A stretch of DNA of 25,389 nt from an uncultured Candidatus Saccharibacteria bacterium. GTDB taxonomy: Bacteria; Patescibacteriota; Minisyncoccia; Phycocordibacterales; PALSA-1337. Location: assembly GCA_964600335.1 (NCBI GenBank), contig CAZRJE010000001.1:1-25389 (forward strand), written 5' to 3'. The position numbers were made by a program, and so were the translations under genes. The stretch's first letter is position 1. Each line of letters starts with the position of its first letter. Below are positions 4,986-14,537 of this stretch, piece by piece. The notes beneath the pieces are model-generated. The model saw nothing but the letters and a program-made list of their open reading frames with translations, was not told the origin of the DNA and did no database searches.

Positions 4986-6044
4986 ATGTCCAAAATATTA
5001 AAGACTTTGATAGGTATTGTGATTGTTATAGTTATCATTGTATTTATATCAACCTTACCAAACAAGAAATACAATTCCATAATAAAAATCGGAATAATTG
5101 GACCATTTTCTGGGGCAGCACAGAGTGTAGGTGAAGAGATAAGAAATACAATTCTTCTTGCAAGTAGTTCGAAGACATCATTTTTATTTGAGGATGATCA
5201 ATGTGATTCAAAAAAAGCGATCTCAAGTTATCAAAAATTAAAGCTCGAAGATGTTCATGTATATTATGTTGCTTGTAGTGGAAGTGTTCTCGCCATCGCT
5301 CCGATCGTAAAACAAGACAATAATCTAATAGTTACAGCGTATGCGGGCTCATCTCAGATTCGTGATACTGGCGATGAAGTTATTCGATTTATACCGGATG
5401 CTCTTTCGATTGCCGATAAAATGGCGAAATATTCATTGCAATTAGCCTCATCGAGCAAGGTTGGACTGTTTTATGAAAAGCAGGATTATTCTGTGTCAGT
5501 TGCAAACAATATAAAGAGTAGTTTAGGATCTTTGGTGAAATATGAAGATACATATTCTGGTGATGGAAATTCATTTAAGACTCAAATCGCAAAATTAAAG
5601 TCGGCTCAGATTTCTCACTTAATTTATATTCCAACGACTGATAAATCGGAAAAAATTATTTTCAGTGAAATGAGAGATATGAATTTCAAGCCGTTTCTTA
5701 TTGGAGATATAAATGTTTGTGAATATGCAAATGAACCAAAAGATTATGGTTTGAAAAGTGTGTGTTTTGATGCGGCTTTTTTAAATGAAACTCCTGCATA
5801 TCAGAAATTTAAGGATGATTATAAAAAGATCTATAATAATGAGGCAAAATCACCATATTATGATGCTATCACTCTAGATATTATGAAGATGATTCAAAGA
5901 TCTGAGATTCAGAATGATGAAAAGCTAGTCGAAAATTTAAAAAAATATTTTCTTGATGGAATACAAGGAGAAATGTCAGAATATCATTTCACATCTAATG
6001 GTGAAGTTGTAGCTGACCCACATATAAAGATGTTTGAGAGATAA
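4986..6044 (+). CDS. LivJ/LivK-like ABC substrate-binding protein 4
   Basis: 352 aa; anchor helix; IKIGIIGPFSG, FEDDQCD, VACSGS, FKTQIAKLK, YDAI; lacks the GGINGR segment. Confidence 0.88.
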   Translation: MSKILKTLIGIVIVIVIIVFISTLPNKKYNSIIKIGIIGPFSGAAQSVGEEIRNTILLASSSKTSFLFEDDQCDSKKAISSYQKLKLEDVHVYYVACSGSVLAIAPIVKQDNNLIVTAYAGSSQIRDTGDEVIRFIPDALSIADKMAKYSLQLASSSKVGLFYEKQDYSVSVANNIKSSLGSLVKYEDTYSGDGNSFKTQIAKLKSAQISHLIYIPTTDKSEKIIFSEMRDMNFKPFLIGDINVCEYANEPKDYGLKSVCFDAAFLNETPAYQKFKDDYKKIYNNEAKSPYYDAITLDIMKMIQRSEIQNDEKLVENLKKYFLDGIQGEMSEYHFTSNGEVVADPHIKMFER

Positions 6045-7971: not shown

Positions 7972-8702
7972 TATTCAAAAATAATTCAATGGAAAAACTA
8001 TTAACAATCGAAAACATCAAAGTTCACTACGGTGGAGTAAAGGCACTAGACGGTGCTTCGGTGTATATAGATGAGGGAGAAGTAGTGGCACTCATGGGTC
8101 CAAACGGTGCCGGCAAGTCAACCGTTCTCAAAGCTATATTTGGTCTCGCTCCTATAGAATCCGGAAAGTTATATTGGGAGGGCCATGAATATAAACCGAT
8201 ATCATATGAAGTGGTAAAAAGGGGAATATCTTTTGTACCCCAAGGCAGGAGAGTATTCAAGCATCTTACGGTACTTGAAAATCTGGAAATAGGTGGAATG
8301 GACGTCGATAGAAATATAAGAAAAGAGAGAATAGACAATGTATTACAATTATTTCCTGCTCTAAAGCAAAAGATAAAAGAAAGATCGGGCACTTTGTCGG
8401 GAGGACAACAGCAGATGTTAGCTATAGCACGCGGACTTATGACGGATCCAAAGATATTGTTGTTAGATGAACCGTCGCTTGGACTTTCACCGAAAATAGT
8501 AAAGGAAGTTTTTTCACTGATCAAAGAAATCAATGAAAGACGAAATATGGCGATCGTGGTAGTAGAACACAATATAAAATCATTGATTGAAATATCCGAC
8601 AGGGTTTATATATTAGATAAAGGAAAAGTAGTTGCAGAAGGTGAACCGAAGACACTCGTCACTTCAGAAATAATGGAGAAAGTATTTCTAGGAAAAGCCT
8701 AG
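7968..8702 (+). CDS. livF: Branched-chain amino acid ABC transporter ATPase
   Basis: GPNGAGKST, FVPQGRRVF, LTVLENLEIG, LSGGQQQMLAIARGL, LLLDEPSLGLSP, VEHN; ATGA overlap with livG. Confidence 0.92.
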   Translation: MIFKNNSMEKLLTIENIKVHYGGVKALDGASVYIDEGEVVALMGPNGAGKSTVLKAIFGLAPIESGKLYWEGHEYKPISYEVVKRGISFVPQGRRVFKHLTVLENLEIGGMDVDRNIRKERIDNVLQLFPALKQKIKERSGTLSGGQQQMLAIARGLMTDPKILLLDEPSLGLSPKIVKEVFSLIKEINERRNMAIVVVEHNIKSLIEISDRVYILDKGKVVAEGEPKTLVTSEIMEKVFLGKA

Positions 8703-8706
8703 TTTA

Positions 8707-8755
8707 ATTCTAGGTTTCTCATTCTAGGTTGGTCCTCTAGGACCAACCTAGAATT
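8707..8755. repeat. Perfect 16-bp inverted repeat plus upstream direct copy of its arm; possible terminator or protein-binding site
   Basis: ATTCTAGGTTGGTCCT (8721-8736), CT, AGGACCAACCTAGAAT (8739-8754); ATTCTAGGTT is also present at 8707-8716. Confidence 0.85.
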
Positions 8756-8798
8756 TATAAAAAACTTAACTCTTATTTATATATTCTTTATCCATTGC

Positions 8799-8807
8799 TG
8801 GTATATT
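8799..8807 (+). promoter_or_regulatory. Extended -10 promoter in leaderless geometry for the pilus operon
   Basis: TGG-TATATT-ttctta-ATG (ATG 8814). Confidence 0.55.
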
Positions 8808-8813
8808 TTCTTA

Positions 8814-9917
8814 ATGCAATTATTTGATGAAAATACACGAGCGGTATACATGATAGATCGAATTTTAGAAAAGGCAGTCTCATGCCGTGCCTCCGATGTG
8901 CATCTCGATATCAATCGAGAGCATATTTACTTAAGATTTCGTATAGACGGCATTATGGAATACATAGGTCATATTTCAAATAGTATTTATTCCGAATTAT
9001 ACTCACGATTTAAAATACTTGCAGGATTGAGAACAGATATACATACAGAGCCTCAGGATGGTCGATATGAAGTAAAGATATTCGATAGATCCTACAATAT
9101 TCGTATATCGTTTATGCCTACATATTATGGTGAGAGTGTCGTACTTAGATTATTACCATTTCGGGAAGATAAATCTTACACATTCGAAGATATAGGTCTA
9201 AATACACTTCATATACAGTCAATAATATCAAATTTAACAAAAACTTCAGGTATTATACTGATTACAGGTCCGACTGGTTCTGGCAAGACTACCACTCTCA
9301 ATATTTGTTTAAAGATTAAGTCTCAAGAACCAATATCTGTAATATCTCTAGAAGATCCAATAGAATATGAAGTCAAAGGTGTGAGACAGGTTAATGTTAG
9401 ACAAAATTCAGGATTTACTTTTGCGAGGGCATTGAAAGCCTGTTTGAGACAAGATCCAGACGTCATAATGGTTGGAGAGATAAGAGATAGAGAAACAGCT
9501 GAGATAGCTATTCATACAGCGCTCACGGGTCATCTCGTATTGTCTACTTTACACGCTGGCAGAGCAAATCAGGTTTTGGAAAGACTCTACGGTATGGGAA
9601 TAGAAAAATATCTCATATTGGAAACCCTAAATCTCATAATCGCTCAAAGATTAGTGAGAAAAGTCTGTAGTATTTGCAAAATGATCAACATAGAAAGATG
9701 CGAGTCATGTCGACATACGGGATATGATGGCAGGACTATCATTGCAGAGATAATCGATATTACAAAGCTAAGAAAAGAGAAAAATATGCGCACGCTCGAA
9801 GTATTTGATATAGACGATTATATTCAGAGTTCAGAATATATTTCTCTCGAGAAAGATGCAAAGGAAAAAATCTCTAAAGGAATTACAACACTATTGGAAA
9901 TGAAAAGAGTTTTATGA
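8814..9917 (+). CDS. Type IV pilus / T2SS assembly ATPase (PilB/GspE/ComGA family), short form
   Basis: 367 aa; RASDVHLD...RFRIDG, PQDGR, Walker A GPTGSGKTTT, Asp box EDPIEY, LRQDPDVIMVGEIRD, His box TGHLVLSTLHA, CxxC...CxxC. Confidence 0.93.
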   Translation: MQLFDENTRAVYMIDRILEKAVSCRASDVHLDINREHIYLRFRIDGIMEYIGHISNSIYSELYSRFKILAGLRTDIHTEPQDGRYEVKIFDRSYNIRISFMPTYYGESVVLRLLPFREDKSYTFEDIGLNTLHIQSIISNLTKTSGIILITGPTGSGKTTTLNICLKIKSQEPISVISLEDPIEYEVKGVRQVNVRQNSGFTFARALKACLRQDPDVIMVGEIRDRETAEIAIHTALTGHLVLSTLHAGRANQVLERLYGMGIEKYLILETLNLIIAQRLVRKVCSICKMINIERCESCRHTGYDGRTIIAEIIDITKLRKEKNMRTLEVFDIDDYIQSSEYISLEKDAKEKISKGITTLLEMKRVL

Positions 9918-10966
9918 TTTCAAAAAGAGATAAATTATCAAAAAAATCGAGTCTAATTATGCTTGAAAAACTTACATTTTATTTAGATTCACACATGCCA
10001 CTTGATGTGGCGCTAAGATCGAGTATAGATACAAACAATTCAAAAGACAAAATCATCTCAAAAAATATACTCTATATGATTGAATCAGGAGGGTCGATTT
10101 CAAGTGCTTTGAATAAATATACGAGATTGCCTCTGGCTTTTATTACTATGATAAGAGGCGGTGAAAAGTCTCAAAATATGAACAAATCGATATCAACAGT
10201 GATTGAGTCCATAAATAGACAAGATGATTTAAAGAAAAAGATAATATCGTCCATGACATATCCTGCCATCATCGGGTTATTTGCACTGCTTATGACTATA
10301 GGTTTAGTGCGAGGTATATTGCCACAAATAATACCCATGCTAAAAGGTCTCAATATTAAACTACCTTTTTTGACTCGCACGGTTATATTTGTCTCAGATT
10401 TCATATCAAGATATGGTCTTATTATCTTTGGATTTGCCATCATTATTATTACAGCGCTTATTATTACAAACAAAAAGTCAAAGAAATTTAGATATATATT
10501 ACACAAAAATACTTTGAGAATACCGATACTTGGTCGTATATTGATTCTTTATGATTTGGCATTTATCGGGATTTCATTTTCATCAATGTTAGAGTCCGGT
10601 ATTTCATTGGTTGATTCGTATAGTGAAATAATCTCAATTTCAAGAAATGAATTTATTAGTAGATCATTGGCACAGTATAAAGAGGAAATAAACAATGGAG
10701 TAAGTGTATCAGTGATATTGACTCGCTTCAGTTTTTTTCCAGTGGACATGATTTCACTCATAAATGCTGGAGAAAAATCAGGAAAGATATCTTATGCATG
10801 GAAGAGATGTTCCGAATCTTTCAATAGTGAACTCGATCATTTATTAAAGAGATTTACATCTCTCATTGAGCCTACGCTTATGATTACTATGGGTATTGTC
10901 ATTGGTTCAATTGCTTTATCAATCATGCTACCAATATATGAAATGTCAAAAAGTTTACAAAAATAG
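9914..10966 (+). CDS. Type IV pilus / T2SS inner-membrane platform protein (PilC/GspF/ComGB family)
   Basis: 350 aa; KKIISSMTYP, LPFLTR, RIPILGR, MISLINAGEKSG, LIEPTL..MGIVIG..ALSIMLPIY; three hydrophobic segments; ATGA overlap with the ATPase. Confidence 0.93.
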   Translation: MISKRDKLSKKSSLIMLEKLTFYLDSHMPLDVALRSSIDTNNSKDKIISKNILYMIESGGSISSALNKYTRLPLAFITMIRGGEKSQNMNKSISTVIESINRQDDLKKKIISSMTYPAIIGLFALLMTIGLVRGILPQIIPMLKGLNIKLPFLTRTVIFVSDFISRYGLIIFGFAIIIITALIITNKKSKKFRYILHKNTLRIPILGRILILYDLAFIGISFSSMLESGISLVDSYSEIISISRNEFISRSLAQYKEEINNGVSVSVILTRFSFFPVDMISLINAGEKSGKISYAWKRCSESFNSELDHLLKRFTSLIEPTLMITMGIVIGSIALSIMLPIYEMSKSLQK

Positions 10967-12434
10967 TGGCACCATACTCGTAGAAATACTTATTTCATTG
11001 TTTATTGTCACTTCATTTATCATGATTGGTTCTTCTACTGTAAACATGAGCATAACTAGATTTGAGTATATAAAGGCAAAAAAGATATTGCTGGATCGAT
11101 TTAACACTGAGATTAGTAACCTGGTACCTCTAGAAGAAAATACAAGATACGAGAAAACAATTTTTGATAATACACTCAAAACAAATATCAATATTGTTTA
11201 TTCATGGAGAAAATATCTCAATATTGGAAAGGAAATAGATTTTTGGCTTAGTGCTTCGACAAGTCAATATTCTAGAATAGATCTGTTTTTTGCTCGTATA
11301 GTAAATAGTGAAGATATATCTGTTGATACAAAACATGTATATGATTCATGCTCAATCGATATGACTAGAAATGAGAAAATTGGCGATTATGCTTTTTGGC
11401 AAAATCAGAATCCATATATATCAAGGCCAAAAGATAAGCTCGATATTCGAGATTATAAGATAAAGACCTCAATAAAAAATCTCAATGTTCATAATAATCT
11501 TTATCCAACGAGCATGTATATATCAAGCTCAACGTTATATATTTCAGAAGATTCAAATGTTATTTCAGATCCAGATTTGTATATATTTGATATAAACGGT
11601 ACGAATCTCAATGTATTGAAAAGTATAAATACTGGTCCAGGAATCGCTGAATTTCAGGTGGATCGCGATCATATATATGTAGCAAATAGGAGTACGACTC
11701 AACAATTGCAGATTCTGGATATTTCAAATGGTAATTTGAGTATAATTGCAAAATACCGATTGCCACTTTTGAGTACTACTACAGAACCAACACTTGGAAG
11801 TACGATTACAAAATTCAGAGATTATGTTTTTTTGGGTACTGAGAAGTGGGATGGAAATGAAATAAATATATTTGATGTTCATGATATTTCAAATCCAATT
11901 CTCATTTCAGGTATCGAAATCGGTAGTAAAGTCAGTGATATGAGTATAGTCCAAAACAGTCTATATGTTGTCAGTTCTCAGAATCATCAATTTCAAGAAT
12001 ATGATATTGCTAATATTTTTAATCCAAGATTGATCCGAGAATATTATTATGATGGCAGTGAAAGACAAGACGGCAAAATATTAAGTCTATTTGAAAATTC
12101 AATATTTATCGGTCGTACAAATGGAGGATTTAATATAAATTATCAATATGAACTATATTATTACAGAGACTATATCAATCGCGATTTCTCCCAAATATAT
12201 CGAGATATTCCAGGCGGAGTCTATGGAATATTGAGTGATAGACAAAGGATATATATGATAACAAAAAAGTCTGGAAATGAGTTTGAAATATTTGATAAAG
12301 AACTCTCTACTACTACGATGAAGATTGATCTTCCAATAAGTCCAAGAAAGATGATCTGTTTTAAAAATAATTTCTATATTTTAGGAGAACAGAGTCCTTT
12401 TGTATATGAATTAAATATAGAAAGAAATGAATAA
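10938..12434 (+). CDS. Pilin-like protein (class III signal peptide) fused to LVIVD-repeat / beta-propeller domain (498 aa; start moved to ATG 10938)
   Basis: MKCQKVYKNSG|TILVEILISLFIVTSFIMIG (E at +5, hydrophobic helix). C-terminal repeats: IYVANRSTTQQLQILDIS, YVFLGTEKWDGNEINIFDVHDISNPILIS, LYVVSSQNHQFQEYDIANIFNPRLI. Confidence 0.8.
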   Translation: MKCQKVYKNSGTILVEILISLFIVTSFIMIGSSTVNMSITRFEYIKAKKILLDRFNTEISNLVPLEENTRYEKTIFDNTLKTNINIVYSWRKYLNIGKEIDFWLSASTSQYSRIDLFFARIVNSEDISVDTKHVYDSCSIDMTRNEKIGDYAFWQNQNPYISRPKDKLDIRDYKIKTSIKNLNVHNNLYPTSMYISSSTLYISEDSNVISDPDLYIFDINGTNLNVLKSINTGPGIAEFQVDRDHIYVANRSTTQQLQILDISNGNLSIIAKYRLPLLSTTTEPTLGSTITKFRDYVFLGTEKWDGNEINIFDVHDISNPILISGIEIGSKVSDMSIVQNSLYVVSSQNHQFQEYDIANIFNPRLIREYYYDGSERQDGKILSLFENSIFIGRTNGGFNINYQYELYYYRDYINRDFSQIYRDIPGGVYGILSDRQRIYMITKKSGNEFEIFDKELSTTTMKIDLPISPRKMICFKNNFYILGEQSPFVYELNIERNE

Positions 12435-12582
12435 ATCACAGATAAAAGCTTTTACTTTGATTGAAATTCTAATATACATATCGTTACTTGCGTTTATCGT
12501 CATATCAATTTTTCCTCACATACTTTATCAAGATAAACAAAATGCTCAATTATTAAATAAGACGATAGAACTATATGAATAG
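12427..12582 (+). CDS. 51-aa mini-pilin, PilW-like position (not in ORF track)
   Basis: Hand translation: MNKSQIKA|FTLIEILIYISLLAFIVISIFPHILYQDKQNAQLLNKTIELYE*. FTLIE N-methylation motif; 8-nt ATGAATAA/ATGAATAG overlaps with both neighbours. Confidence 0.85.
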   Translation: MNKSQIKAFTLIEILIYISLLAFIVISIFPHILYQDKQNAQLLNKTIELYE

Positions 12583-12790
12583 ACAAGGATTTGTATCATT
12601 TATCGCGATAAACATAATAGTATTCGTATCTATTTTTTATATGGTACTTGTCTCATTGATATTGGGTTCTCACTATGATCTTATAAATTTGAAAGAATAT
12701 AGAATACAGAGAAATTTAAATAATAGTGCGAGAGACGATCTAACTTCCAGGTTTAAGATTGACCAATCTTTCTTTGTAGATTTAAATTAA
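12575..12790 (+). CDS. 71-aa PilX/GspK-like minor pilin lacking Glu5
   Basis: MNRQG|FVSFIAINIIVFVSIFYMVLVSLILG: basic leader, G|F cleavage site, hydrophobic helix, no E at +5, follows two other minor pilins. Confidence 0.65.
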   Translation: MNRQGFVSFIAINIIVFVSIFYMVLVSLILGSHYDLINLKEYRIQRNLNNSARDDLTSRFKIDQSFFVDLN

Positions 12791-12872
12791 TTTATGAATA
12801 TTTGATCTCAATTTTAAATTAAATTTATAACACTAAGCTACCATATTCATATTATTAATAATTAAAATACAT

Positions 12873-13421
12873 ATGAATATGACAAAATTGAGAGATAGTG
12901 TTCGTGATAGAGTGAAACCTATAAAGATAAAGAAGAATCATATTAAGGTCGAAAGACGAGCAAAGAAATCCGGATTTACTTTGATTGAAGTCCTAGTTGT
13001 GATAGGTATTATTGCAATTTTAGCTACCGTCGTCCTTGTTGCTGTAAATCCATCAAGACAATTTAAACTTGCTCGTGATACTGAGAGAACCAGTCATGTA
13101 AATACAATTTTAAATGCCATAGGCCAAAATATCACCGAGCATAAAGGTATATTTACTTGCGAAAATAATCCGAAGACGCTTCCAAATTCACCGACAGTCA
13201 TAAAATCTAGTGATGAAAATCATTCCGGAGCGGGAGATATAGCCCACTGCCTCATTCCGGACTATATATCTTCTATTCCGGTCGATCCAAATAAGACAGG
13301 AGCTCACTTTGCCTCACTTACTGATTATGATACTCAATATGAAATATCTGTAGATTCAAATGGTCGTATTACGGCAAGTTCATCCGGAGAAATTAGTCCT
13401 CTTATAAGTGTGACACGCTGA
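12873..13421 (+). CDS. Type IV pilin, probable major pilin
   Basis: KKSG|FTLIEVLVVIGIIAILATVVLVAVNPSRQFKLARDTER; two Cys in the globular part; long basic leader. Confidence 0.92.
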   Translation: MNMTKLRDSVRDRVKPIKIKKNHIKVERRAKKSGFTLIEVLVVIGIIAILATVVLVAVNPSRQFKLARDTERTSHVNTILNAIGQNITEHKGIFTCENNPKTLPNSPTVIKSSDENHSGAGDIAHCLIPDYISSIPVDPNKTGAHFASLTDYDTQYEISVDSNGRITASSSGEISPLISVTR

Positions 13422-13427
13422 TAATAT

Positions 13428-13483
13428 TGTGAATATATAGAACGTATACAGCCAAAAGATGTATAACGTTCTATATATTCACA
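13428..13483. terminator. Long hairpin just after the pilin stop (terminator or mRNA-stabilising stem)
   Basis: TGTGAATATATAGAACGT (13428-13445) is the exact reverse complement of 13466-13483; inner ATACA/TGTAT pairs with a 1-nt bulge; 9-nt loop; no classic U-tract. Confidence 0.65.
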
Positions 13484-13490
13484 TTGTAGT

Positions 13491-14537
13491 TTGTCTATCC
13501 TGTTATATTATATATGGGTGAGACCGAACAATATAAAGACAATAGCTTCAGTTACTACAATATGTTTCTTATTTATATTATTAGCATTTCTTCATTCTCT
13601 TACAAAGAACAGTTCGATATCCAAAAGATCACAAGTTATAAATAATTCTCTATATAAAGTTACAAATAGGAATATTGCAGACAATATTCCGGGTAATACT
13701 AATGATTCCCCCGTAACAATTGATGCGAGTTTCTTTGAAAAATTAGCAAATGTATTTCCGATGAATGATGAGAAGACAGAGCAAAGTGAGATTCAAGATT
13801 TGAAATCAAAAGTTACGGCGATTGCTTATATTGTTGGAAATCTGAAGACGGGAGAAATATATCTTGAAAAAAGAGCTGACCTTTCTCTACCAGTTGCTTC
13901 TATGTCAAAATTATTGACTGCTTCAGTGGCTATGGATTTGTTGCCAAGAAATACAATCACTCAAATTGATGAAAATACTATAAAGACAGTTCCAAACAAT
14001 AAGGATGATTTTAAACCAGGAGAACGCTTTGCTACTGAGGAACTCATACCACTTATGCTTGTAAGTTCTTCAAATATTGCCGCTGAAGCTATCGCATCTA
14101 CTACATATATGAATAGGGAAGAATTCGTACACAATATGTCCGCATATTCATGGGAAGTCGGAGTAAGATCGAGTTATTTTTCAGATCCATCTGGAATTAG
14201 TGAGTTCAATCGTGTATCTGCTCGCGATATATTCTCTTTATCTAAATATCTATATGAGAGAAAACCTGAGATCTTGAATATCACAAAGATAGCAAAAGGG
14301 TTTATAGAAAGGAACAATCTTCATGATAGTCATGTCTTTATAAGTACTCACCCGTATGTATCTGATAAGAGATTTTTAGGAGGAAAGACGGGTACTACTA
14401 TTGCAGCAGGAGAGACGATGCTCACGGTTTTATCGATCAAGGGAGAACCAATATCATTTGTAGTATTACATTCAAAAGCAGGAAATAGAAAAAATGATAC
14501 CGATATATTGATTAAGCTTGTATCGAATAGATTCTGA
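13491..14537 (+). CDS. D-alanyl-D-alanine carboxypeptidase (peptidase S11), membrane-anchored; start uncertain (TTG 13491 or GTG 13518)
   Basis: Serine-PBP motifs SxxK (ASMSK), SxN (SSSN), KTG (GGKTGTT); FSDPSGI; N-terminal hydrophobic helix; no long C-terminal domain. Confidence 0.88.
   Translation: MSILLYYIWVRPNNIKTIASVTTICFLFILLAFLHSLTKNSSISKRSQVINNSLYKVTNRNIADNIPGNTNDSPVTIDASFFEKLANVFPMNDEKTEQSEIQDLKSKVTAIAYIVGNLKTGEIYLEKRADLSLPVASMSKLLTASVAMDLLPRNTITQIDENTIKTVPNNKDDFKPGERFATEELIPLMLVSSSNIAAEAIASTTYMNREEFVHNMSAYSWEVGVRSSYFSDPSGISEFNRVSARDIFSLSKYLYERKPEILNITKIAKGFIERNNLHDSHVFISTHPYVSDKRFLGGKTGTTIAAGETMLTVLSIKGEPISFVVLHSKAGNRKNDTDILIKLVSNRF

Follow-up and report, generated by a model that had tools for sequence, protein, structure and literature searches.

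How much of a minor pilin is needed to start a type IV filament? Minor-pilin tip complexes start the assembly of type IV pili (T4P), type II secretion pseudopili and competence pili, and current models of this step rest on contacts between globular heads. The question is raised by a locus in a 25,389-nucleotide (nt) stretch of DNA from an uncultured Candidatus Saccharibacteria bacterium (GenBank assembly GCA_964600335.1, contig CAZRJE010000001.1; the whole stretch is called the window below), in which three coupled genes for proteins of 498, 51 and 71 amino acids (aa) lie between pilB-pilC and the major pilin gene. A first-pass annotation, made from the letters alone, had read the three as a miniaturised pilus tip complex in PilV-PilW-PilX order, with a beta-propeller built into the first pilin and the globular domains of the other two lost. 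Having followed up this reading computationally, we conclude, with a probability of roughly 0.65, that this is a gene set for the tip (priming) complex of a minimal type IV filament. The observation itself holds up and reaches further than the first-pass annotation had it: the headless arrangement is conserved in dozens of species and appears to have evolved more than once.

Results

Three coupled genes in a small patescibacterial genome

The window is contig C1 of a 618-kb genome (36% GC, 84% complete) whose relatives are Patescibacteria (Paceibacteria/Parcubacteria-type metagenome-assembled genomes), and its DNA is also present in wastewater and activated-sludge metagenomes. We collected 65 related loci, in 63 of which the genes downstream of the propeller gene could be scored, and widened the comparison to 44 more operons of the same GTDB order; three of these belong to the window's own family and the remaining 41 to about 30 families outside it. 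Every frame was open under translation table 11, so that an alternative genetic code was unnecessary, and a promoter and terminator scan gave a signal no higher than the shuffled expectation and was uninformative.

The coordinates and sequences of the three open reading frames (ORFs) and of the two 8-nt overlaps that join them, ATGAATAA and ATGAATAG, were all as first described. The 498-aa ORF in addition overlaps pilC by 29 nt, and a gap of 82 nt separates the 71-aa ORF from the major pilin gene. The identity of the two overlaps did not hold up as a meaningful signal. Junction lengths in the relatives range from -28 to +25 nt, as overlaps or gaps, and because they differ so widely the shared octamer carries no special meaning.

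The 498-residue protein is predicted to join a pilin to a seven-bladed propeller

The first gene (10938..12434, plus strand) encodes a bimodular minor pilin that begins MKCQKVYKNSG/TILVE, where the slash stands before the first mature residue. The protein matched Pfam Beta_propel (PF09826) with 25.7 bits at a cut-off of 22.4, and LVIVD (PF08309) was found in many of its homologues. These numbered 117 by search and were mostly 420-530 aa long, and all source names that carried a taxon were Patescibacteria. The AlphaFold2 model, built on a 104-sequence alignment, reached a predicted local distance difference test score (pLDDT) of 90.5 and a predicted template modelling score (pTM) of 0.88. It consists of a leader (residues 1-11), an alpha1 helix (12-60), a four-stranded pilin head (70-123), a low-confidence linker and 28 strands in residues 173-496 (about nt 11454-12425), which form seven four-stranded blades. 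Its best structural matches were seven-bladed WD40 propellers (Foldseek E values down to 5e-10; VIA Z scores up to 29). Judged by this model, the protein is a true lollipop pilin that carries a seven-bladed LVIVD beta-propeller, and the pilin-propeller fusion of the first-pass annotation is thereby borne out.

The propeller did not lead back to the known pilus adhesin: PilY1 was missing from the top structural matches listed, and neither Pfam nor NCBIfam gave a PilY1/PilC family match for the protein, which is itself a pilin. Its pilin module reached no curated minor-pilin family in Pfam or NCBIfam, and a profile of the N-terminal module matched only homeobox sequences, by chance, among the sequences of the Protein Data Bank (PDB). 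The Atlas structural neighbours of the protein were LVIVD clusters; two of these, from WWE3 and Roizmanbacteria, also carried N_methyl, so that LVIVD-propeller pilins occur in other groups of the Candidate Phyla Radiation too.

The class III signal motif G-x-ILV[DE] was kept in all 28 homologues compared. Conservation within the family peaks in the propeller (mean top-residue frequency 0.57) and is lowest in the pilin head and the linker (0.23-0.26), where indels also occur. The C-terminal propeller of PilY1 is also conserved and is thought to stabilise the tip complex (PMC13533445). The high conservation of the window's propeller recalls that of PilY1 and speaks less for a variable, host-specific recognition than for a structural role or a conserved ligand; a structural or tip-nucleating role, or a ligand that is itself conserved, fits the data at least as well as the host recognition that had been suggested. 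Two cysteines, Cys138 in the linker and Cys474 in blade 7, are nearly invariant in the family, and a disulfide between them could pin the propeller to the pilin module.

The 51-residue pilin is conserved and has no room for a head

The second gene (12427..12582, plus strand) encodes a mini pilin, MNKSQIKA/FTLIE, whose 43 mature residues hold the alpha1 helix with Glu5 and are too few for a globular head. It matched Pfam N_methyl (PF07963) with 22.6 bits (cut-off 21.2). The nearest NCBIfam model was ComGE, with 30.4 bits against a cut-off of 49; other models scored lower, all of them over the N-terminal helix only, and no curated cut-off was reached for the ComGE/GspI/PilV or ComGF/GspJ/PilW equivalogs.

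Conserved pilins of about 50 aa after LVIVD pilins, which the first-pass annotation had proposed to look for in relatives, were indeed found. Of the 63 scorable loci, 49 carry a separate mini-pilin gene behind the propeller gene, encoding 41-47 mature residues (mostly 43-44), and another seven have it as an in-frame fusion with the gene that comes next. The 50 members of the family aligned gap-free, with the consensus G/xTLIExxIYxxLLSxLLxGFIxYxYxIxxxNxxLxxxIxDA, and Glu5 was invariant in all 50. The ratio of nonsynonymous to synonymous substitution rates (dN/dS), a second check proposed at the outset, was 0.05-0.3 among the closest pairs; over all pairs the proportion of nonsynonymous differences (pN) averaged 0.40 and that of synonymous differences (pS) 0.81. 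The mini-pilin gene is therefore conserved under purifying selection, and its recurrence is far beyond chance. Public collections hold 33 homologues of 44-84 aa, some of them already named as prepilin-type proteins.

The 71-residue protein lacks Glu5 and belongs to a family that varies in length

The third gene (12575..12790, plus strand) is the last before the major pilin, as in sister operons, and its product, MNRQG/FVSFI, has Ile instead of Glu at position 5 after the glycine. On the strength of a family alignment (A4) we interpret it as a reduced, Glu5-less cap pilin of the K type (PilX/GspK/ComGG-like). In this family of 41 members the hydrophobic helix opens with an invariant G-F; an R.Q motif is likewise invariant, and two cysteines are conserved. 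The relatives measure 69-123 aa after the glycine and fall into two size classes, of about 77 aa and of 99-123 aa; the window's protein, with 66 aa and no globular head, is the shortest found and has lost both conserved cysteines. Neither Pfam nor NCBIfam has a family for the 41 members, and the sequences could not be placed in T2SSK, PilX_N or ComGG. A DUF5904 match was limited to the window sequence alone and was judged spurious. The Atlas feature neighbours ComGG, PilX_N, DUF2509 and DUF2572, which we take to be Glu5-less K-type pseudopilin families, serve as leads only.

The short third ORF without its cysteines, together with the very long branch of the window lineage, is what one would expect if, in a reduced, AT-rich genome, the small ORFs were remnants in decay or artefacts of gene calling. 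This explanation is highly improbable and is already contradicted by the constant mature length of the mini pilin in 50 genomes and by its dN/dS values. The same proteins are also called by public pipelines, and both small ORFs are intact in a strain that is about 96% identical, where the third is still 71 aa long. Wastewater metatranscriptome contigs of that strain cover most of the operon (window 8700-13600), both small ORFs included; contigs spanning 11730-13600 amount to presence in an RNA library, short of proof of transcription. The view that the two small genes are conserved and not simply decaying thus stands. A related objection, longer orthologues with recent truncation in this genome, does not apply to the mini pilin, whose orthologues within the genus have 41-47 mature residues, but it applies in part to the third protein, given its longer, two-cysteine relatives.

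Seven related genomes encode the mini pilin and the Glu5-less protein together, in a single in-frame ORF of 131-157 aa that contains two hydrophobic helices (loci L008:6457-6876, L009:6587-6982, L019:6458-6850, L020:6455-6850, L025:6073-6474, L033:3698-4102 and L034:6576-7046). All seven genomes belong to one clade on the propeller-pilin tree, which indicates that the fusion has persisted. When fused, mini and K proteins were aligned together (alignment A3), MAFFT scattered the mini pilins over both halves, and A4 was used for folding instead. The AlphaFold2 model of a natural fused relative (pLDDT 82, pTM 0.48) shows a 33-residue helix for the mini part and, after a break of 5 residues, a second helix of 62 residues followed by a beta-hairpin; this hairpin is all that the model has of the beta-sheet, closed by a C-terminal strand, that is expected of K-type minor pilins. 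A Foldseek search with the fused model against the PDB matched nothing.

Such a fusion would make a two-helix membrane hairpin, which is more easily pictured in a membrane than in a filament, and since both small proteins are essentially single hydrophobic helices one may ask whether they are membrane-resident helpers, for instance chaperones or placeholders for the helix of the propeller pilin at the platform. We consider this improbable. The mini pilins carry a canonical prepilin motif with an invariant Glu5, the third protein keeps an invariant G-F motif of the cleavage type, and both descend from full-size minor pilins at matching operon positions, as described below. The two conserved cysteines of the K-type relatives, moreover, suggest an extracytoplasmic location.

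Sister operons carry full-size minor pilins at the same positions

The usual order in the surveyed operons was pilB, pilC, an H prepilin, the propeller pilin, a full-size prepilin, a Glu5-less protein and the major pilin. There the H prepilin has 137-152 mature residues, the propeller pilin 450-530 aa, the pilin after the propeller 146-160 mature residues and the Glu5-less protein 110-144 residues. One sister H product matched Pfam GspH and ComGD over its full length, and one sister propeller pilin gave a sub-threshold PilV match (E 1.5e-4). The mini-pilin profile scored best against the gene directly after the propeller pilin in all four sister operons compared (hhalign 41-58, E 1e-8 to 1e-11), with scores of 12-35 for their other pilins, and the K-type profile aligned to the sister Glu5-less protein with both cysteines in register (E 7e-5).

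From the full-size sister layout and these profile matches, it follows that the small proteins descend from full-size minor pilins at the same operon positions, and that the window operon is a reduced derivative in which the H gene was lost, J cut to alpha1 and K trimmed. The proposed loss of globular domains agrees with this, as the sister operons present the small proteins as miniaturised full-size minor pilins. The PilV-PilW-PilX labels fared less evenly: they find weak support in the canonical H-I-J-K order of the sister operons and in the one PilV match, but the window proteins themselves match none of the corresponding models.

The reduced layout, in which the H gene is missing and the mini pilin has 43-57 residues, was found in the window's family and in four others, and intermediates of 103-120 residues in three further families; not one mini operon has an H gene. 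To account for the mini state, a tree of the propeller domain requires at least three changes, across branches that are well supported. For example, the mini loci L108 and L109 are sister to the full-size L099, and the mini locus L117 to the full-size L123. The reduction thus seems to have arisen several times independently in related lineages. This goes beyond the first-pass annotation, since by these comparisons a GspH-like gene was lost along with the heads and the reduction recurs in several families.

The pilin behind the propeller gene seems, in some sister families, to start directly at M-T-L-[FL]-E, without a leader or a glycine at -1 (start codons as called: L097, frame 5471-5662 on the minus strand; L098, 5352-5525; L106, 4896-5321). 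A leaderless pilin-like protein of this kind would do without the prepilin peptidase.

The neighbouring machinery genes and the possibility of a competence pilus

Upstream of the three genes lie a short extension ATPase of the PilB/GspE/ComGA type (367 aa; 8814..9917, plus strand; Pfam T2SSE, E 2.7e-102) and a platform protein of the PilC/GspF/ComGB type (350 aa; 9914..10966, plus strand) with two Pfam T2SSF domains and a GspF match at E 1.5e-58. The pilB-pilC-propeller synteny was seen in 63 of the 65 related loci; the PilC gene stands immediately upstream of the propeller pilin in 63 and the ATPase gene is syntenic in 59. Downstream, the major pilin gene (12873..13421, plus strand; Pfam N_methyl, E 1.7e-8) encodes a 182-aa precursor that reads KKSG/FTLIEVLVV at the processing site (KKSG/FTLIEVLVVIGIIA...), and its 148-aa mature form is T4a-like. 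It is the best conserved protein of the cluster, with 53-80% identity to the downstream pilin in 28 of 65 loci. Its leader as called (window 12873-12974) is unusually long, 33 residues compared with about 6-20 in relatives, and an internal GTG start is possible.

The same three-protein structure could belong to a Com-like competence pilus or pseudopilus for DNA uptake, the propeller making contact with DNA or the cell wall and not acting as a host adhesin. The ATPase and the platform protein are N-terminally short in the manner of ComGA and ComGB: they cover positions 2-266 of 267 and 9-330 of 332 of these NCBIfam models, and the ATPase covers 108-485 of 486 in GspE. The operon is without PilMNOPQ genes, ComGE is the best NCBIfam match of the mini pilin, ComGG is among the Atlas neighbours of the K-type protein, and the seven-bladed propeller YncE, which binds single-stranded DNA, is among the structural matches (Z 26.4), though it is no better than many WD40 proteins. 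On the other side, every Com-model score stayed below its cut-off and GspE and GspF scored higher, the major pilin is not ComGC-like, and the propeller-bearing pilus of a saccharibacterium served host binding, not competence (PMC11623550). We therefore regard a competence function as unlikely.

Elsewhere in the genome, a prepilin peptidase gene (Peptidase_A24) lies on contig C58, and there are two more pilC loci besides the window's. Five T2SSE-type ATPase genes exceed the Pfam cut-off; four are PilB-like, including the window's, and the shorter fifth is probably PilT-like. A second, larger T4P locus on contig C4 (L089:191-6839) encodes a 583-aa PilB and a PilC, two prepilins (one of 600 aa with CarboxypepD_reg-like domains, the other of 200 aa) and a pilin-like protein of 474 aa that lacks Glu5, so that not all pili of the organism are miniaturised. 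Following the major pilin gene in the window is a gene for a D-Ala-D-Ala carboxypeptidase (Peptidase_S11, window 13491-14537), which is found likewise in 24 of 65 related loci; the pilus operon is conservedly linked to this cell-wall enzyme.

Discussion

We propose that the three genes specify the tip of a filament whose machine would consist of the short ATPase, the platform protein and the prepilin peptidase encoded elsewhere in the genome. The I-position minor pilin would combine a normal pilin module with the C-terminal seven-bladed LVIVD propeller. The mini pilin, placed at the J position by the gene order of the sister operons, would be reduced to its 43-residue alpha1 with Glu5 kept, and the K-type cap, devoid of Glu5, to a long helix and a short tail. 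Their three alpha1 helices would form a helical core on which the major pilin could polymerise. The tip of known filaments is capped by the K subunit, which has no other subunit above it, and H docks where J and K meet (PMC13533445). The K-type subunit would likewise sit on top, because no subunit above it needs the Glu5 salt bridge, and the joint loss of H and of the J head fits an H left with nothing to dock on. The propeller pilin would then supply the only globular mass, its propeller taking over the capping and stabilising role of the lost heads much as the C-terminal propeller of PilY1 does, and binding of a ligand on a partner cell may be a further function.

Several points weigh against this proposal. 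That the 43-aa and 66-aa proteins are incorporated into the filament is something we infer from genes and models, and the window proteins match no PilV, PilW, PilX, GspI, GspJ or GspK model at the sequence level. The licensing model of tip assembly requires a K-subunit beta-sheet and globular I-J contacts (PMC13533445), and both are absent from the window's system. The fused protein, with its helices only about five residues apart in the model, is not easily reconciled with two alpha1 helices that run parallel and staggered, and it is also puzzling with regard to the usual membrane topology. Finally, complementation in trans might come from minor pilins, of the H type or others, whose genes lie elsewhere in the genome.

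A broader claim, which we hold only tentatively and at somewhat less than even odds, is that the tip-priming complex was stripped repeatedly and independently within one order of Patescibacteria to a propeller pilin and two helix-only subunits, with no H and with the propeller replacing the heads. If this is true, filament initiation has no universal need for the 'licensing' contacts, by beta-sheet and beta-strand addition, that have been proposed to hold for all type IV filaments, and one clade even fuses both helix-only subunits into one polypeptide with two pilin-type helices. A tip in which two of three subunits are headless would be a natural minimal case for what filament initiation requires. 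It also bears on how ultrasmall, host-dependent Patescibacteria build pili thought to serve attachment, and illustrates that pilin genes of 40-70 residues, often missed by gene callers, can be functional machine parts.

None of the papers searched describes a core minor pilin without a head, or minor-pilin heads that were lost repeatedly. Headless core minor pilins thus appear to be undescribed so far; propeller-bearing minor pilins are already known. One frame of reference is the H-I-J-K core (GspH/I/J/K, FimU-PilV-PilW-PilX and ComGD/E/F/G), for which a canonical gene order H-I-J-K has been described (10.1101/2023.09.19.558370), as have K-type capping and an H-J-I-K order in the tip (10.1101/2023.09.19.558370; PMC13533445). 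The window's genes resemble this core in forming one operon beside machinery genes and in ending on a Glu5-less subunit, the expected cap, and the sister operons retain the four-gene order with a GspH/ComGD-like first gene (10.1101/2023.09.19.558370). They differ from it in that three genes are kept and H is missing, in that the J-position subunit is headless, and in a K-type subunit with a beta-hairpin at most and, in the window genome, not even that.

With PilY1/PilC the window's protein shares a seven-bladed propeller that is associated with minor pilins at the tip and is the conserved part (PMC13533445). PilY1, however, is a separate non-pilin protein that docks to PilK/PilX by C-terminal beta-strand addition, whereas the propeller in the window is built covalently into a pilin and falls in the LVIVD/Beta_propel families. 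A further relative in architecture is PilX2 of the saccharibacterium Nanosynbacter lyticus TM7x, a minor pilin with a C-terminal heptabladed propeller that is needed for host binding; it too comes from the Patescibacteria and is encoded within a T4P locus (PMC11623550). PilX2 has RCC1 repeats, no predicted PilD signal and companion minor pilins that are full lollipops, whereas the window's protein has an LVIVD-type propeller, a canonical signal peptide and headless companions.

Streptococcus sanguinis PilB and PilC, and ComZ, also count among the modular pilins. CpaL/TadG resemble the window's propeller pilin in carrying an extra functional domain on a pilin module at the filament tip (PMC13533445), but in modular pilins of this kind the added domain is a different one and the partner minor pilins are of normal size. 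Pilins that are essentially alpha1 only are known as well, in Geobacter PilA (about 61-66 aa) and the Flp pilins of Tad pili (PMC4471445). Those are major, filament-forming subunits, and the Flp motif and machinery differ, whereas the window's headless pilin would be a low-copy core minor pilin that works beside a major pilin of normal size.

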